A stretch of 64,000 bases of DNA from a phage (GCA_033286805.1 GCA_033286805.1_4727.1); one strand, 5' to 3'. Positions 5,841 through 56,010 are shown, counted from the first letter of the stretch. The notes: generated by a model not told the origin, from the sequence alone. A program made the numbers and translations.

Positions 5841-6497
5841 TTAGCTTGCAGCTTCTTCATTTGTATCAGGTTTGCTTCCCCCTAACAAACCGTCAAACAG
5901 ACCCGTATGTTTCAGGTAGAAGAGAGCGATAGCGCCCATTGCTGCTGCGCTCGTCGCCGTTAACGCAACCCCAGCACGATACTGCCATTTACGGTCAGGC
6001 TTTTGATCAAGAGCCATACGACGCATGTATTCAGCCTCTGCTTCATTCCGATGAATTTCGGATTCAGCCAAGCGGGCTAAGGTATCGCGGTCAAGGTTAT
6101 CATAACGTACGTTCATGGTGGTTTCCTCTTGTTTGGAAGTTGATTGCTTAGTGGATTCTTGGTCAACAGTCGTTTCAGATGGTTCAAACGGCTGGTTGTT
6201 CATTTTCTGATCTTTATTGGTCATGATAGACTCCTTCGATTTTTGAGATGAAATTGATTTAAACCATCGTGGATGGCGGTATTCAGTTTTACATGTGCAG
6301 TTAAGTTTCTCGTGCAGGAAAGCGTAAAAACGTTTTGCGCCTACACGTAAGGCTTTCAGCATTACCCATCCACGAGCACTCAAACGGTGTAGCTGTTGCG
6401 GTATGTCTAGTTTCCTAGCCAAGCGAAAGTATCTTTCAATCACTTCGATAGGAAACCATTGTTGTTCCACATCGGTGAGACTGAAAGTCTTATCCAT
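5841..6497 (-). CDS. hypothetical protein with C-terminal TM helix
   Basis: First ORF downstream of promoter box at 6522-6545; C-terminal hydrophobic segment GVALTATSAAAMGAIALFYL. Confidence 0.5.
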   Translation of the reverse strand: MDKTFSLTDVEQQWFPIEVIERYFRLARKLDIPQQLHRLSARGWVMLKALRVGAKRFYAFLHEKLNCTCKTEYRHPRWFKSISSQKSKESIMTNKDQKMNNQPFEPSETTVDQESTKQSTSKQEETTMNVRYDNLDRDTLARLAESEIHRNEAEAEYMRRMALDQKPDRKWQYRAGVALTATSAAAMGAIALFYLKHTGLFDGLLGGSKPDTNEEAAS

Positions 6498-6521
6498 GAA
6501 TGAAATCTCGCTGGCTTACTT

Positions 6522-6545
6522 CACTTAAGTAATATAGCCGTGAAA
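6522..6545 (-). promoter_or_regulatory. conserved 24-bp promoter-like box, copy a
   Basis: Plus reading CACTTAAGTAATATAGCCGTGAAA; minus reading TTTCACGGCTATATTACTTAAGTG; 25 nt upstream of ATG of 5841-6497(-). Confidence 0.55.
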
Positions 6546-6647
6546 AATGTTGGAATAAGTTAAATACCGCAACCGCAGCTAATTTTATAGGCTTTTAGCC
6601 TAAACCAATCATCTTCGGAATCATCATCTTTGAAACAGGAATCTATC

Positions 6648-7469
6648 ATGGAAAAAGTATTTGTTTGTAAGCTGTTTACCAACGGCAATAGCCAACCAAT
6701 GTACCTGACCGATCCAGTTCTAGGTAATCGGAACAGCACCGTATTCAAAGAAGCTTTCGAATACGCTAAAAATAAAGCCGTGAGAACACTGACGTCCGAT
6801 GACTGTATCAACGGTATCACGTGGGCGGAGTTATTCGGTGATGCTGTTAGACACTTCGTTCGGGACGCAAGAAAACGGGAAATCTGTCTCACGACTATCG
6901 TTGTGCGTGAAAATGCAGAAATTTTATCAAACGTTTTGGTTGATTTTAATGACGTTTGCGTGTTTAATCCAGAGAACACGTTTGAACAATATCTTACTGC
7001 CCTGAACAACCAGCTCGGTAAAGATATTCATCCCGAATTCGCCAAGTTAACATATCAGTTACTTTTTGACGACGTCGATCCAAATACGAAGATCGATACC
7101 AGCTTATCGCCCCTGGTAAAGAAATACGGATCGGTTCTCGCTACGGCAACACCCACCACCGATGGCGGTTATGATATCGAATTGGATGGTCCATTAAAAG
7201 AACAAGAGCCTACTGGGGTTAGGGCGGTACATCACAACCTCGTCGTTAAATCTGATGGGTGCGATGAACATTACGCTATGATAAACGATGAAAACAATTA
7301 CCGTTTAAGTCAAGCGATTGGTGTTCTACGCTATACCGAACCCACTGTTGTAGACGATTATACATCGACAACAACGCACACCACGTGTTTCATTTTCATC
7401 TATCCCAATGAAAGTGTGTACATTACTGACTGCTACGGCAATACCGTAGATAGCTTACGTCGTTACTAA
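6648..7469 (+). CDS. hypothetical protein
   Basis: ATG 6648 with AGGA SD 7 nt upstream; followed by TTCG-loop terminator at 7476. Confidence 0.55.
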   Translation: MEKVFVCKLFTNGNSQPMYLTDPVLGNRNSTVFKEAFEYAKNKAVRTLTSDDCINGITWAELFGDAVRHFVRDARKREICLTTIVVRENAEILSNVLVDFNDVCVFNPENTFEQYLTALNNQLGKDIHPEFAKLTYQLLFDDVDPNTKIDTSLSPLVKKYGSVLATATPTTDGGYDIELDGPLKEQEPTGVRAVHHNLVVKSDGCDEHYAMINDENNYRLSQAIGVLRYTEPTVVDDYTSTTTHTTCFIFIYPNESVYITDCYGNTVDSLRRY

Positions 7470-49974: not shown

Positions 49975-50595
49975 TCATAAACGACGCAGGCGATAATGGA
50001 TGGAACGATTGGTGCAATATGAACGGAACAGCGGCAATTGCGCAACTTCCGCAAGACTCATATTAATTCGCAGGTGTTCAATAACGGCGCTGTAGTTATC
50101 AGCAATACGATCGCTCAATAACTCTTCTGCCAATAAAGGAAGACAATCGACAACAATCGCGATCACATCCTCATTAACATAACGCACCCGAACACTCAAC
50201 GGACGTTTGTCTGGGCTGTAAGTTGGATCCGCCAAACGACGTTCAATATCACGCGGATAGCTCGTCAGTAAATGGTAATAACCATTGTCATAACGATTGA
50301 TGTACTCACACAGCACATCAACATTCTTCTCTGGCGGCAAACCTGTTTCGTCATAGTGATACGCAAACATACCACCAAGCAGGTTGTTAAGATGAACTGC
50401 AGGGTTCGCTTGTTCGTGTTCTTTCGTGATGAAGAAAGGCACGTTTTGAGCTGCGAAATAAAAACCTACATCATTGGGCGATAGTATGCCGAAAAGACTT
50501 TTAGGGTCTAATAACACCTGTAAGTCATCACGCGCATTTCGAATAATCGCGTGTTCTACCCAATTCGGAACGACGAGATATCGGAGTTCCTTCAT
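49975..50595 (-). CDS. hypothetical protein (206 aa)
   Basis: ATG 50595 with AGAGG SD; divergent from 50635 gene. Confidence 0.55.
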   Translation of the reverse strand: MKELRYLVVPNWVEHAIIRNARDDLQVLLDPKSLFGILSPNDVGFYFAAQNVPFFITKEHEQANPAVHLNNLLGGMFAYHYDETGLPPEKNVDVLCEYINRYDNGYYHLLTSYPRDIERRLADPTYSPDKRPLSVRVRYVNEDVIAIVVDCLPLLAEELLSDRIADNYSAVIEHLRINMSLAEVAQLPLFRSYCTNRSIHYRLRRL

Positions 50596-50634
50596 TATGA
50601 TTACCTCTTTGCAAGTATCGAAAGGATTGAGTCG

Positions 50635-52245
50635 ATGGACCCAAAACAGATAGCCATTAAGATTATTACGTTACTGTTTCGTAATGCACAATTGAACCAT
50701 CCCGATCCCAGTACGATCGAACATGTTAAATCCGTCTTAGATAAAGTCGAACCCCCGAAAAACCATCTCGCTACAGACGTAGATAGAGAGGTTTTCAGCA
50801 ACCTGATGAACACCATTCATTGGATGCTGGAACAACCGTTATCGGAACCTTTCGATAAACAACAGTTGTTACAAAGGATACGTTTAGATTGCCTTGAACA
50901 AAGCAATCTTTACGAGATTCTTGCCGACGGACTGTACGATATCGAAGACGACGCTCATATCAGTAAGGTCTGTTCGCTCTATTACAACGAATTACGTAAT
51001 CTGATTACCCGTCGTCGTGTTTTCGAAACCTTTAGAAACACGTACATGGATATCAGTAACGGGCGACTTGGGGATAAAGAATTTTTCGATGCGATGGCGA
51101 ATCTGAAATTATCGCTAGACAGTATCGAAATGGATACCGAAAATCCCGAAGAGATGGCGTGTATGATTGACGGCTTTATCGCTGACAGCGAAGACGATAT
51201 CGAGAAAGTCGAACGTATGTTCGTCAAAGCGATGGAACGTAACAGTCCTGAAGGTGGATTTGTAACCGGCTGGCAAGGCTTTAATAAAATGTTGGGGTCG
51301 GTCGGTGTTTTACGTCGCGGTACCTTAGGACTGATTGGTGCAATGCAGCACCGGAACAAGTCAGGCGTGTTGTTAAAACTGTTCACACATCTGGCATTGT
51401 ACAACAAACCCCATTTCTTTTTCCCGGAGCGAGCAAAGAAAGCATTACTGATTCATTTGTCGACAGAAAACGAAGTGGAAGAAAACACGCTTCAGATATA
51501 CAAGAACATGCGAGAACAGGAAACAGGCGAATATGTCGATATTCGTAAGATTGACCCTCGCGAGGCATCACGTTATGTGTTGAAGGTGTTCAACGATGCG
51601 GGTTTCTCTGTTTGTATGCGTCGTGTTGATGGGATGAGTTACAAACAACTCGCTAATCTCATCGACCATTTCGAACGCATGGGTTATGAGGTCATGGCGT
51701 TGTTCATCGACTATCTGAAAATGTTCTCATCGGAAGGGCTGGATAGAAATGGACCGACCGGCGCATGGCTCCAAGAACTCTTTAACAAAGTCCGTAACCT
51801 CTGCAGCGTTAAACGTATTTTAGGTATGACCGTACACCAGCTGTCATCCGATGCGAAGATGCGTGCACGTGATGGCAACGATGAAGAGTTCGTTGACCAA
51901 GTCGCAGGTTTAAGTTACTGGGATGGTTGTAAAGGGATTGACCGTGAGATTGACCTCGAAGTGATTGTTGATATCGTTAAGGAACCGGGCAAACGTCAAA
52001 GCTGGCAGGTCTTTGCGTTAGGGAAAGACCGTCAACCGGATAACGGTTCAACGAAACCTGAAGACAAACATTTCGCGATGCCATTCCAAACCATCGGGAT
52101 GCTTCCTGATGATTACGGTAAGAAAGCAGTATATTGCCGCAAGGTTGGCGGACAACCTGTCTCCGAGGGAGGTAAAGGTCCGTGGAACAAGTTCGATGAA
52201 AACGCAGCACCGAGTAATGAATTACAATTTGATTTAGAATTTTAA
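50635..52245 (+). CDS. hypothetical protein (536 aa)
   Basis: ATG 50635 with AAGGA SD at 8 nt; followed by A9 tract and hairpin 52271-52302. Confidence 0.6.
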   Translation: MDPKQIAIKIITLLFRNAQLNHPDPSTIEHVKSVLDKVEPPKNHLATDVDREVFSNLMNTIHWMLEQPLSEPFDKQQLLQRIRLDCLEQSNLYEILADGLYDIEDDAHISKVCSLYYNELRNLITRRRVFETFRNTYMDISNGRLGDKEFFDAMANLKLSLDSIEMDTENPEEMACMIDGFIADSEDDIEKVERMFVKAMERNSPEGGFVTGWQGFNKMLGSVGVLRRGTLGLIGAMQHRNKSGVLLKLFTHLALYNKPHFFFPERAKKALLIHLSTENEVEENTLQIYKNMREQETGEYVDIRKIDPREASRYVLKVFNDAGFSVCMRRVDGMSYKQLANLIDHFERMGYEVMALFIDYLKMFSSEGLDRNGPTGAWLQELFNKVRNLCSVKRILGMTVHQLSSDAKMRARDGNDEEFVDQVAGLSYWDGCKGIDREIDLEVIVDIVKEPGKRQSWQVFALGKDRQPDNGSTKPEDKHFAMPFQTIGMLPDDYGKKAVYCRKVGGQPVSEGGKGPWNKFDENAAPSNELQFDLEF

Positions 52246-52270
52246 ACGCAAAAAAAAAGATTGTGCGGTT

Positions 52271-52302
52271 CCCTCCTCCAACCCGTAAGGGAAGGAGGAG
52301 GG
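52271..52302. terminator. CCTCC/GGAGG palindromic hairpin (H10)
   Basis: ccctcctcc-aa-ccc-gtaa-ggg-aa-ggaggaggg then GTTATGACCG; A9 tract upstream; convergent junction 50635-52245(+)/52319-52645(-). Confidence 0.75.
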
Positions 52303-52318
52303 GTTATGACCGCTTTGA

Positions 52319-52645
52319 TTAACTTATTGTCATGAATTCATTAGGTGAAAATTTCCAGCCGTTCTCAGTGAGAAGCGTGTTGAGTTTCGCTGCAACGATA
52401 AGCCACGCATGCATGGCTGTTACATCGTATTGGCGATTCACTCGACGTTGGTTTTCGATATTGATTTGCTCCTGTTCAGTGATGTTTGGATAAAGTGCGA
52501 TAGCGCTAGGTTTACCCAGCGCGCTAGTCATCACCGCCGTACATTCACTGATAATGTTGTTTAAGTGGTAGTTATACACCGTTCCACGCATGACGCGATG
52601 ACGGCATTCGATAATAGCGTCGTAAATGATTTCTCGAGTAATCAT
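52319..52645 (-). CDS. hypothetical protein (108 aa)
   Basis: ORF ending at hairpin 52271-52302. Confidence 0.45.
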   Translation of the reverse strand: MITREIIYDAIIECRHRVMRGTVYNYHLNNIISECTAVMTSALGKPSAIALYPNITEQEQINIENQRRVNRQYDVTAMHAWLIVAAKLNTLLTENGWKFSPNEFMTIS

Positions 52646-52651
52646 GATAAT

Positions 52652-53053
52652 TTAAAACATACGGTCGTTTTTAGCACGGGCGTTCATTACCAGATCGTAG
52701 ATGCCTGCGGTTCGTAAGCACTCTTCGTAGTAACGATGTGCGCCTTCATCAGCCATCCACGATAACCCACGGCTATCCGCAACAATAACCAGTTTGTTAT
52801 TGTTGAACGCACACACCACACGGTAGGTCGCGTTGTTATTCGGGTCGCGAGTGATAAGTTCGTAGACGCCGTTAACAGGTTTACTGAATTCGCCATTTAA
52901 CGGAACGAGTTCGGTAGTACCTTCAGCAAACGTTACGTTGATCGGTGATGGATCTTTAGCGATAACAGTATATTCCACATTGTGTTCTTTACTGGTCATA
53001 ATACCGAAGTAAGAACTGACAGGGGAACGTGGTACACTAAGAATATTAAACAT
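52652..53053 (-). CDS. hypothetical protein (133 aa)
   Basis: ORF on dominant strand. Confidence 0.5.
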   Translation of the reverse strand: MFNILSVPRSPVSSYFGIMTSKEHNVEYTVIAKDPSPINVTFAEGTTELVPLNGEFSKPVNGVYELITRDPNNNATYRVVCAFNNNKLVIVADSRGLSWMADEGAHRYYEECLRTAGIYDLVMNARAKNDRMF

Positions 53054-53123
53054 AGATGTTGTCCTCTTAATTGGATTTAGATTGTTGGGTGTGTAATTGA
53101 GAAATGAAAACGTTGTTTCGGTT

Positions 53124-53693
53124 TTAGACGATGAGTGACCAGGTGGTAAGCACCCCGCTTGCGAATTCGAGCTTAAGACGTTTACCGATAAGTTGTTGTT
53201 GGATCATCTTCTCAGTGATACGTCGATCTTGCTGAACCGCTTTATCAAACGCTTCTTTTGCTTCAGCTTGGTAGAAGTTCGTTTCTTCGTTTTCGTCGAT
53301 CTCTTCGAGAGCATCCTCGTCGATGTCAGCAAGTTTCACTCGACCGTTTTCATCAGGTTGTTCTGCAGGTTCATTGTCATACGGCGTGTCTTTTGTTGGT
53401 GCGACACGATGTTGCAACTCGACCTGTGTTAACATGATCTCCATCTCACCATCGATAGGAATGATTTCATCGGCGCTGCCGTTTTCGGTCAGCTCTCGAC
53501 TTTCCAGTAATGTCGTCGTAACAGAGAACACCTCTTCAACAGGAACCTCATCATCGTCGATGGTGTTAACCGTGTTGCTGGTAACTTCGGCAACAACCAT
53601 CAAATCAAATGCGTGAGGGTCACCTGGCATTTTGATGCCTGGAAGTTTGTTGAGGTACCAAGGATCAAGAATCATGATTTCTGGATTAAACAT
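53124..53693 (-). CDS. acidic hypothetical protein (189 aa)
   Basis: D/E-rich; first substantial ORF downstream of promoter box 53897-53920. Confidence 0.5.
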   Translation of the reverse strand: MFNPEIMILDPWYLNKLPGIKMPGDPHAFDLMVVAEVTSNTVNTIDDDEVPVEEVFSVTTTLLESRELTENGSADEIIPIDGEMEIMLTQVELQHRVAPTKDTPYDNEPAEQPDENGRVKLADIDEDALEEIDENEETNFYQAEAKEAFDKAVQQDRRITEKMIQQQLIGKRLKLEFASGVLTTWSLIV

Positions 53694-53896
53694 CGTATTT
53701 TACCTTTCTATGTTAGGTGGATTGCGGATAGAAGAATCAATGCATAGATTGATCGTTCTATGTTAGAAATTATTGCCGAACTGGTTATGGTTATAACGCG
53801 TGTTTTCGTATGCTGACGGGTCGCGTATTAATAAGGTCATGACTGTATCCTCGATTATTAAGAGAAATTTACAACGATAACAGTAACCGCTGTTAT

Positions 53897-53920
53897 CACC
53901 TAGGTAATGTAGTCGCGAAA
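53897..53920 (-). promoter_or_regulatory. conserved 24-bp promoter-like box, copy d
   Basis: CACCTAGGTAATGTAGTCGCGAAA; between hairpin H11 and minus block starting at 53693. Confidence 0.55.
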
Positions 53921-53954
53921 TAAACTGGAGTAATGCGAAATAAGACAGCATAGA

Positions 53955-53987
53955 ACCCTCTCCCAACCCAGCAGGGAAGGGAGAGGG
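53955..53987 (-). terminator. CCTCC/GGAGG-type hairpin (H11)
   Basis: ccctctccc-aa-ccc-agca-ggg-aa-gggagaggg; just downstream of 53994-54626 gene and 35 nt upstream of promoter box 53897-53920. Confidence 0.65.
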
Positions 53988-53993
53988 AATATA

Positions 53994-54626
53994 TCACCAA
54001 TGATCGAAGGAACCAGGAGTGTTACGAACGATCTCAACTTGGAAGGTTATTGGTACTGATGGCAATGAAACATATTCGCGTTGCGATAGCAGGACGTTGT
54101 CTTCTCGCTCATCGATGCGAGTAGAACCCGTCAGAAATTGGAACATAGCGACTTGAAGCTCATCGGTGAAACGGAGGTACTCACCGATGTGTGGTGTTGC
54201 ATCATATCGAATAAGTACGTTGCCAAACCGTCGTGCGATATTTGGAGTATCTGTGAACGAAACAGGGAAATCCAAAGTCATTCCCATCGTTTCACCTGGC
54301 TTCATTTTCCGAATCGACGCAATTGGCGCGTCGAAGATATTCCATTCTTCTTTCATCGTGTCTGGAAACACACCGCGATACAAGATGGTCTTTTGATGAC
54401 GATGAACGGGTTGTAAACGGTCAACCAATATTTTCAAAGGTTTAAGTTCTTCAGCCAATTCATAATCTGCTTGGATGTTCCACTTTGCCGCAAGTTCCAT
54501 TAGGTTGGGATACGCGCTATATTTATTGACGATAGCCCAGTTAACATTACGCAAATCGATAGGAAGGAATTTGATAATTTCCTTGTTGAATATCCATTGG
54601 TTTAATTTCTTAATCTTCGAAAGCAT
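53994..54626 (-). CDS. hypothetical protein (210 aa); weak R-S-ExE ADP-ribosyltransferase-like pattern
   Basis: Start set at ATG 54626 (track start would overlap upstream gene). Motifs ILYRGV, VSFTDT, DEREDN in ART-like order; assignment speculative. Confidence 0.45.
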   Translation of the reverse strand: MLSKIKKLNQWIFNKEIIKFLPIDLRNVNWAIVNKYSAYPNLMELAAKWNIQADYELAEELKPLKILVDRLQPVHRHQKTILYRGVFPDTMKEEWNIFDAPIASIRKMKPGETMGMTLDFPVSFTDTPNIARRFGNVLIRYDATPHIGEYLRFTDELQVAMFQFLTGSTRIDEREDNVLLSQREYVSLPSVPITFQVEIVRNTPGSFDHW

Positions 54627-54642
54627 GATGTACTCACTACAG

Positions 54643-56010
54643 CTAAACGGTTGGACGAACGGTGTTGTCTTTTTCTGGTGCAAGCCATAACGTGACCGTA
54701 CCATGACATGTCCACTGTGGCTCACGTACAGAAGAACCTGCCATCGTAACAGCACAATCGGTACGCATGATAACCCCGTATGCTTCGCAGAGATTGTTAT
54801 CCTGCATCCACACAACTTTAGCAGGCATGCCGGGATACAACAAATCCATGTTTGCGTATTCCCACACCAACTGCATTGTTCTACCGCGTAATCCAGCAGT
54901 ATTGCTTAATTCACGCCATCGGTTATCGGTTACGCGTCCCATCCCTTTCGCCACCTTCACGTTATCGCTACGTTCTTCAGTTACGTACTCGCTAACGTTT
55001 ACGGTACGACTGATTATCGTATCACCCCCTTTTGATAATGTCATTCCCTGACTCATCTGACTTGCCGAAACAAAACGCCCGCCCGCATTACCTAACAACG
55101 AAGCCGCGTTATTGATGTCGCTTACCGACGCCCCTCTCGTACAGGCAATTTCCACGTATTTGTCACGATTGATCCAGGTCTTGTCCATGCCCGGAAACAT
55201 ATCGGCAGGATAGTTGTAAAAGATAGCCGTGCGCCGACCGTCAGAGAAACGGGTTTCGTCATAGAGAGGATAAATATACAGATACGGAGATTGGTAATAA
55301 CAACCGACATCCGCTGAATAAATACCGACCTGGTTCTGGATTTTGTCTACGAGATCCATTGCGTTGGTACCGTGCGGAAGAATAAGCAACTTGAACAGGT
55401 TGTCGTTATTCGGTGCAACAATATCCACACCCTGCATTTTGAATCCGGTGTCGGCTTCAACCGCAGAAAGTATTTTGCTGAATTCGAGCCGTAACACATC
55501 CAGAACTTTCGACCCGGTATAGTTTTCACCGGTTTCTGATTGCATGAAGCTTTCAAGAACAGGATCGAACAGTTGAAATTGAAGATCGACCATTTGCTCG
55601 TAGTCTTTCTTCGAAGAATCGGTTGCGGTACGTTCGTCGGTAGCAGACATACGACTGTCTACGGTTGTTAAACAAACCGCTCGGTAGACGTAAGCTTGTG
55701 CGGCATCGTCTACGGTTTGGCGTTGTCCGCGCATCAGGCTGTACGCCTGCACGATGATGCGCATTTTAAGTTGTTGTTGGTATGGTAGAATGTATTTTCC
55801 GTAACTGCCCGGTGGGAACTTTACAGAAATATAAAGTTCATCCCCTGCGTTACGTTCATAGTCTCGATACGTGTGGACTTGAGTCACTAAAGGAACAGAC
55901 ACCGTCATTGACGGCGTGATTAATTCCGCGGTGACTTTATACGCAACAGCAACTGCTTCCTGCGCAAATGTACCGATATACCGTCCTAACGGCGTCTGTT
56001 TGTAATCCAT
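54643..56010 (-). CDS. hypothetical structural protein (455 aa)
   Basis: Long ORF in tightly packed minus block. Confidence 0.6.
   Translation of the reverse strand: MDYKQTPLGRYIGTFAQEAVAVAYKVTAELITPSMTVSVPLVTQVHTYRDYERNAGDELYISVKFPPGSYGKYILPYQQQLKMRIIVQAYSLMRGQRQTVDDAAQAYVYRAVCLTTVDSRMSATDERTATDSSKKDYEQMVDLQFQLFDPVLESFMQSETGENYTGSKVLDVLRLEFSKILSAVEADTGFKMQGVDIVAPNNDNLFKLLILPHGTNAMDLVDKIQNQVGIYSADVGCYYQSPYLYIYPLYDETRFSDGRRTAIFYNYPADMFPGMDKTWINRDKYVEIACTRGASVSDINNAASLLGNAGGRFVSASQMSQGMTLSKGGDTIISRTVNVSEYVTEERSDNVKVAKGMGRVTDNRWRELSNTAGLRGRTMQLVWEYANMDLLYPGMPAKVVWMQDNNLCEAYGVIMRTDCAVTMAGSSVREPQWTCHGTVTLWLAPEKDNTVRPTV

Follow-up and report, generated by a model that had tools for sequence, protein, structure and literature searches.

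One open reading frame of the window, by which we mean the whole stretch of 64,000 nucleotides of phage DNA analysed here, very likely encodes a small single-domain NAD+-dependent mono-ADP-ribosyltransferase (ART) of the R-S-E (cholera-toxin-like) clade, which would be a remote homolog of ModA and ModB of phage T4. This assignment is based on sequence profiles and on a predicted structure. Three sequence features of the R-S-E clade are present in the protein, namely an aromatic-Arg motif on predicted strand beta1, a Ser-Thr-Ser-type motif on predicted strand beta2, and a (Q/E)-x-E motif at the start of a predicted strand. The window DNA is 97% identical to that of the nucleus-forming jumbo phage Escherichia phage vB_EcoM_Goslar (hereafter Goslar). 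The features discussed below are listed with their coordinates in Table 1.

The product of the reading frame has 210 residues, a molecular mass of 24.6 kDa, a pI of 6.9 and no cysteine. The initial annotation placed this frame at exactly the right coordinates and with the right length, but its strand has to be corrected to minus; the plus-strand frame over the same positions is riddled with stop codons. An alternative reading from a TTG start codon would give 273 residues and overlaps the upstream gene. The product of 210 residues is preferred because the orthologs share its start Met (MLSKIK/MLADIK) and because the ATG lies 16 nt past the upstream stop codon, with a weak Shine-Dalgarno-like GTGAG in this spacer. 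The first 20 residues (54567-54626, minus strand) are predicted with low confidence (pLDDT 42-54) as an N-terminal amphipathic helix, MLSKIKKLNQWIFNKEIIKF. This helix is found in the Goslar-like clade, and other members of the protein family have different extensions or none. It could serve for targeting or interaction.

Table 1 Features of the ART gene and its surroundings (positions in the window)
Feature	Coordinates	Strand	Description
ART-fold protein CDS	53994..54626	-	ATG at 54626, TGA at 53994-53996; supported by the same start Met in orthologs and by dN/dS
gp048 homolog	54643..56010	-	455 aa, 99.6% identical to Goslar gp048; closes the conserved part of the late structural operon
One-gene cassette, about 652 bp	53993..54644		From the window/Goslar alignment; Goslar lacks the cassette
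GC-rich hairpin CCCTCTCCC-N14-GGGAGAGGG	53955..53986	-	Begins 8 nt past the ART stop codon
Motif I, L82-Y83-R84-G85	54375..54386	-	Predicted strand beta1 (81-86); proposed NAD-binding Arg
Motif II, S123-F124-T125-D126	54249..54260	-	S-x-[ST]-T, STS equivalent; predicted short strand 123-125
Motif III, S181-Q182-R183-E184-Y-V-S-L-P189	54060..54086	-	Q-x-E opening predicted strand 184-187; proposed catalytic E184
D172-E-R-E-D-N177	54096..54113	-	Loop before the ARTT turn; lowest pLDDT (block 171-180, mean 68)

Exhaustive phmmer searches place the protein in a family of 23 clusters at 50% identity with E values up to 1e-3, and 25 non-redundant members, with 22-33% identity to the query, were used to count conservation. 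Members were found by tblastn in the jumbo phages pEa_SNUABM_54, SXP01, KpYy_2_45, Eowyn and RP12/RP31. The retrieved public records give them as hypothetical proteins or, for SXP01, without annotation, bar one 98% homolog mislabelled as TusA; the KpYy_2_45 record carries no annotation, and RP31 lay outside the record check. The SXP01 member (locus L003, 4001-4495; PV593634.1, 257136-257630) is not called as a gene in GenBank. It sits in a 680-bp gap after four genes named 'putative virion structural protein', and the family HMM matches it at an E value of 6e-52. The same HMM found no paralogs in the window or in any of the fetched loci, giving one copy per genome.

The initial annotation had read an R-S-ExE motif order from three short strings, ILYRGV (residues 81-86), VSFTDT (residues 122-127) and DEREDN (residues 172-177), all of which are present in the protein. 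In its loose form, that is, an aromatic-Arg pair, [ST]x[ST] and ExE in this order, the pattern matches 12 of the 50 window ORFs of at least 150 residues (24%) and 7.4% of shuffles of the 210-residue protein. As first written, the three-motif pattern is no better than chance. Such a frequency among long window ORFs would agree with a coincidental motif match in a fast-evolving phage ORFan without enzymatic function. However, the family, with at least 23 clusters at 50% identity, has conserved motifs and is under purifying selection, the protein has an ART fold in structure prediction, and its profile matches that of ModA/ModB far above shuffled controls, which together leave a chance resemblance only a remote prospect.

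Because they are conserved in the family, two of the three motifs, LYRG and SFT, are credible. In motif I (LYRGF in the family), R84 and G85 are invariant in all 25 members, and position 83 is always an aromatic residue (Y, F or W). In motif II (PxSFTT), S123 is found in 24 members and position 125 is T or S in all 25, so that the sequence is S-F-T instead of S-T-S. Motif II is followed by a conserved IAxxFG segment, with A131 in 24 of the 25 members and G135 in every one, and further downstream E156 (TDEL) is present in 23. The third string fared differently. DEREDN is ruled out as the catalytic ExE by its variable family columns (R174 in 7/25 members and N177 in 1/25); it adjoins a clade-specific insertion that is missing from most members, and a conserved Q182-x-E184 lies 10 residues downstream. 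The true third motif is this Q182-x-E184, in which E184 is invariant (25/25) and is followed by P189 in 24 members, within the family sequence TQxE[VWI]IxLP. Position 182 is occupied by Q in 18 members, by E in two, and by L, S, Y or M in the remaining five. The catalytic E-x-E of arginine-specific enzymes is thus not found in the window protein. In place of the aromatic phi residue seen in the ARTT loop of the toxins, it has L179.

The AlphaFold2 model built on the family alignment (pLDDT 84.5, pTM 0.81) starts with an N-terminal helical region and contains the split beta-sheet core that characterises the ART fold superfamily. R84, S123 and E184 are located on the predicted strands 81-86, 123-125 and 184-187, respectively, which is the canonical R-S-E ART order, and the topology of the model suggests that the three residues cluster around one pocket. 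Foldseek searches of the PDB return almost only R-S-E toxins, namely CDTa, C3bot, Plx2A, Certhrax, ExoS, C3larvin, iota and Vis, as weak matches (E of 0.03 or above, TM 0.2-0.33). In BFVD, the best matches are members of the same family, such as RP12 ORF127 (E 5.5e-14, TM 0.73), and a T4-like "ADP-ribosylase" and several annotated viral ARTs follow at lower ranks. Comparison of a predicted structure with ART folds, which the initial annotation had named as a check, thus gave an ART fold both in the AlphaFold2 model and in the Foldseek matches.

Searches of Pfam, PHROGs and PDB sequences with the single protein gave no ART match, the PHROGs match being to a family of unknown function, and profile libraries gave no ART family assignment at threshold. 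Below threshold, Pfam DRAT was matched by 16 of 28 family members (11-17 bits against a cut-off of 25) and ADPrib_exo_Tox by two of the 28. When the family profile was searched against the PDB, the top two matches were the mART region of SidE (5zq2) and 2kxi, both aligned on YRG...STT. 2KXI is probably the Neisseria meningitidis ART NarE, an identity that is given no weight in the assignment.

Moderate fold-search scores and no threshold-level family assignment would also suit a catalytically dead ART fold with a structural or binding role, perhaps as a minor component of the virion, whose motifs are conserved for fold stability; the location of the gene, which closes a virion structural operon, points the same way. 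However, the catalytic R, S and E are kept in all or nearly all members, at 22-33% identity, whereas most other positions vary, Goslar builds virions without the gene, and members in other phages are encoded outside structural modules. A dead enzyme is therefore very unlikely, and an active transferase is the preferred reading.

A TusA-family sulfurtransferase has been suggested by the NCBI name 'sulfurtransferase TusA family protein' given to a 98% homolog (P0001; Salmonella Anatum, 243,635-bp contig). The window protein itself matches Pfam TusA with 15.4 bits (E 0.017, residues 105-144) and PDB 1jdq with an E value of 0.18. A persulfide-relay protein requires cysteine, and the protein has none, so that this identity is refuted. 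Furthermore, the Pfam score is below the threshold of 28.6 bits, the match covers only profile positions 21-60, which are non-catalytic, and no TusA-like fold was matched. There is hardly any chance that the protein is a sulfurtransferase, and the NCBI label is a mis-annotation that arose from a sub-threshold partial match.

The relationship to the T4 enzymes emerges from profile-profile alignment. When the family profile was aligned with a small ModA/ModB profile by hhalign, a probability of 93.1% and an E value of 3.1e-7 were obtained. Local runs with other settings gave probabilities of 75-91%, the E values over all settings ranged from 3e-7 to 3e-5, and relaxed or global runs aligned the profiles from end to end, the relaxed settings with an E value of about 1e-6. 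Control alignments with a reversed and 30 column-shuffled Mod profiles did not exceed a probability of 0.4%. This match supports the ART interpretation of the initial annotation, and its remark that the protein is comparable in size to phage-encoded host-modifying ARTs also holds, ModA having 200 and ModB 207 residues compared with 210. With T4 ModB alone, the E value is 5.7e-4, and the alignment pairs W49 with W41, LYRG with LYRG, PGETMGM with VGEVFS, and VSFTDT with DSFTTS. Motif I is thereby aligned with L71-Y72-R73-G74 of ModB and motif II with D-S99-F-T-T, and R84 is aligned with R73. The R73A substitution inactivates ModB, abolishing both ADP-ribosylation and RNAylation (PMC10468400). 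The relaxed alignment pairs IDEREDNVLLSQREYVSLP of the window protein with DSERTDNLMMIVREQEWMIP of ModB, so that DEREDN corresponds to SERTDN of ModB in the loop before the catalytic turn. In this low-confidence part of the alignment, QRE is shifted by one residue against the EQE of ModB.

The family profile did not match T4 ModA or ModB in HMMER at E values up to 10, and PF26816, which is precomputed for ModB homologs, is on record for no member of the family. Because HMMER gives no link and PF26816 is recorded for none of the members, the family is best filed in the R-S-E clade beside Mod, as a remotely homologous sister family and not as a member of it, as far as sequence comparison goes. 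The Pfam set searched here leaves T4 ModA and ModB themselves unrecognised, and so its silence on the 210-residue protein says little about Mod membership.

If the protein is an active transferase, R84 on beta1 and S123 on beta2 would hold NAD+, as suggested by the biochemistry of the R-S-E class, and E184, which opens the strand that follows the ARTT loop, would stabilise the oxocarbenium intermediate, as in other enzymes of the family. The ADP-ribose moiety would then be passed to a host macromolecule or possibly to a phage one. The residue at position 6 of the ARTT loop (E or Q) sets the acceptor specificity: Glu directs the reaction to arginine, as in iota Ia, and Gln directs it to asparagine, as in C3, or to the N2 of guanine, as in ScARP (PMC7827354). 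Because the family is mostly Q-x-E, unlike T4 Alt, ModA and ModB with their E-x-E, its acceptor is probably different from the canonical arginine of the T4 enzymes, a call that has to be made with caution because it is weakened by the variable position 182 and the missing phi residue.

The Q-x-E enzyme might ADP-ribosylate guanine bases in nucleic acid, like pierisin, ScARP and Scabin, and the Gln at position 6 of the ARTT loop contacts guanine in ScARP (PMC7827354). An enzyme that is injected or made in the cytoplasm would then poison the exposed host chromosome or host RNA, and the phage genome would be shielded within the proteinaceous nucleus, so that no immunity protein would be needed. 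We consider guanine modification a long shot.

It is also conceivable, but unlikely, that the ART fold acts mainly as an NAD+ glycohydrolase or on another NAD-derived substrate, for example by depleting or rerouting NAD+ or by attaching NAD-capped RNA to proteins (RNAylation). NADase activity also requires the catalytic Glu and the NAD-binding Arg and Ser, and the variable position 182 suggests a weak constraint on acceptor positioning. Furthermore, ModB, the closest characterised relative, accepts NAD-RNA (PMC10468400). However, the characterised Mod, Alt and C3-like enzymes are all primarily transferases, in line with the preferred assignment as a mono-ADP-ribosyltransferase.

The gene of the putative transferase is preceded on the same strand by genes whose products are 99-100% identical to Goslar gp048-gp051. 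The upstream genes encode a head-tail joining protein (PF24214/PF24215, E 1e-48 to 1e-68) and homologs of Goslar 'virion structural' proteins, in agreement with the earlier description of the locus as the end of a structural block. The cassette begins with the final base of the gp048-homolog stop codon, takes in the 16-nt spacer and runs to the ART stop codon; no flanking repeats were seen at it. The eight neighbouring proteins contain no immunity protein, macro domain or ADP-ribosylhydrolase partner detectable by Pfam, which recognises only the head-tail joining domains among them.

The hairpin downstream of the gene has a free energy of -27.7 kcal/mol (z -4.55), and none of 200 shuffled sequences was as stable. 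It consists of a 9-bp outer stem, CCCTCTCCC/GGGAGAGGG, and an inner 3-bp stem, and it overlaps the start region of a small gp047-like ORF. The hairpin is kept in Goslar, where changes are confined to the loop. A simple terminator scan did not call it because it has no T-run; similar 'putative transcriptional terminators' are annotated elsewhere in Goslar. It probably terminates transcription of the structural operon or stabilises the end of its RNA. A sigma-70 scan, which by design excludes chimallivirus promoters, detected no promoter of its own for the ART gene. Given this result and the slot between the last structural gene and the terminal hairpin, the gene would most likely be transcribed late, together with the virion genes.

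The ART protein may enter the virion and be injected as T4 Alt is, or it may have a late role in infection. Genes for phage ARTs are frequently neighbours of head-morphogenesis genes (PMC9503650), and in the SXP01-like lineage the gene for the homolog P0009 comes immediately after that for Peptidase_S80, a prohead protease of the phiKZ type. Packaging of the protein into the virion would fit such gene positions and is a speculation. When the sequence was inspected by eye for a prohead-protease or capsid-targeting signal, the only [SAG]-x-E found was A58-E-E60; because it lies in the middle of a confidently modelled helix, it gives no support for processing. Packaging as a family-wide trait was rejected, as gene contexts differ between lineages: other members are encoded beside endolysin, RNase H, and thymidylate synthase or other nucleotide-metabolism genes.

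The region between the gp048 homolog and a DnaB-like helicase gene is a variable accessory island (window 52319-54644; L001 6320-7976; L009 6001-10431; L008 6001-7694). In the window, it contains the ART gene and genes for proteins of 67, 189, 133 and 108 residues, and Goslar has the same set minus the ART gene. The island of L009 carries the ART gene with genes for 134, 254, 277, 168, 133 and 108 residues, and that of L008 carries it with a gene for 286 residues. The four small proteins of the window island have no match in Pfam. In pEa_SNUABM_54 (L002 4989-7241), the family member is convergent with a gene for a DnaB-like helicase that is 32% identical to that of the window. The ART and helicase genes have the same relative arrangement in the window (50551-54626), with four small genes between them, which amounts to a loose synteny across distant jumbo phages.

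In the diverged Goslar-like contigs L008, L009 and L010, too, the ART gene comes immediately after the gene for the 455-aa gp048 homolog, and the encoded proteins are 82% (L008) and 90% (L009 and L010) identical to that of the window. Judged by the dS of gp048, the window, Goslar and L009 form a group (0.10-0.14), with L008 as an outlier (about 0.85-0.89). Because of this grouping, and because L008 carries the gene, the absence of the gene from Goslar would most simply be explained by a secondary loss. Comparison with the orthologs gives a dN/dS of 0.09-0.13 for the ART gene, which indicates purifying selection; this is about five times more relaxed than for gp048 (0.02). The gene is an accessory one, missing in Goslar and kept in many Goslar-like genomes.

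Between the window and L009 (53997-54626 versus 6079-6708), the ART gene has a dS of 0.44, three times that of the adjacent gp048 (0.14). Between the window and L008, the dS values of the two genes are similar (0.96 for the ART gene and 0.85 for gp048). Such dS values hint at an exchange of the cassette by recombination among Goslar-like phages.

An E. coli assembly encodes a protein identical to that of the window (ELT9794084.1) on a contig of 235,087 bp, and the cluster at 90% identity comprises 158 members, whose contigs of about 234-243 kb come from assemblies of E. coli, Salmonella and Shigella isolates. Genomes of Goslar-like jumbo phages apparently occur as whole contigs in many enterobacterial surveillance assemblies. 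Such whole phage contigs could reflect a carrier state or contamination.

Nucleus-forming jumbo phages (Chimalliviridae) have their own RNA polymerases and keep their DNA hidden, and little is known of the ways in which they manipulate the cytoplasm of the host. T4 ModA and ModB reprogram host transcription and translation via ADP-ribosylation and RNAylation. The ART gene of the window is a candidate host-takeover or counter-defence factor, for which Goslar provides a natural knockout, with near-identical relatives that carry the gene. The Q-x-E motif predicts an acceptor chemistry unlike that of the T4 enzymes, and the family spans Goslar-like, RP12, Eowyn, pEa_SNUABM_54 and SXP01-like jumbo phages. 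The finding corrects a database mis-annotation and is otherwise an incremental result. ARTs are found in more than 40% of jumbo phages (PMC9503650), and one of the most common ART families in viruses is the 'Mod family of the RSE clade' (PMC9503650, PMC7824862). The protein is a divergent unannotated member, or belongs to a sister family, of a known kind of enzyme, and nothing in it departs from the known class.

Among known systems, DraT (PF07357) is the Pfam ART family that was matched repeatedly, over the segment from YRG to SFTT..FG (profile positions about 160-223). However, none of these matches reaches the threshold of 25 bits (maximum about 17), the window protein is not among the matched members, and the biology of DraT is unrelated. 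The C3-like exoenzymes and other minimal R-S-E toxins (C3bot, C3stau, C3larvin, Plx2A and Vis) are among the closest known systems. T4 Alt, which is made late, packaged into the head and injected (PMC5694885, PMC9503650), is likewise a phage R-S-E ART, and the co-orientation of the window gene with late structural genes would fit the logic of Alt. However, Alt is much larger, its mature form being about 68 kDa (PMC5694885), belongs to the Alt/VIP2 family, and has a capsid-targeting propeptide that is cut by the prohead protease.

The window protein resembles ModA and ModB in being a phage-encoded and dispensable single-domain protein of similar size. It shares with ModB a helical segment at the N terminus that contains a conserved Trp (W49, paired with W41 of ModB), the LYRG motif, xSFTT compared with DSFTT, and a C-terminal (E/Q)-x-E-[WV]-hydrophobic...Pro segment. 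The third motif of ModB is R-E171-Q-E173-W-M-I-P177, in which the spacing from Glu to Pro differs by one residue from that in this family. Both Glu residues, E171 and E173, are fully conserved in the alignment of ModA and ModB, whereas the window protein has Q182-R-E184. The genes also differ in their setting. T4 modA and modB are early genes and lie among srd, mrh and srh, whereas the window gene ends a late structural operon. T4 depends on the RNA polymerase of its host, whereas the window phage is a nucleus-forming jumbo phage with RNA polymerases of its own.
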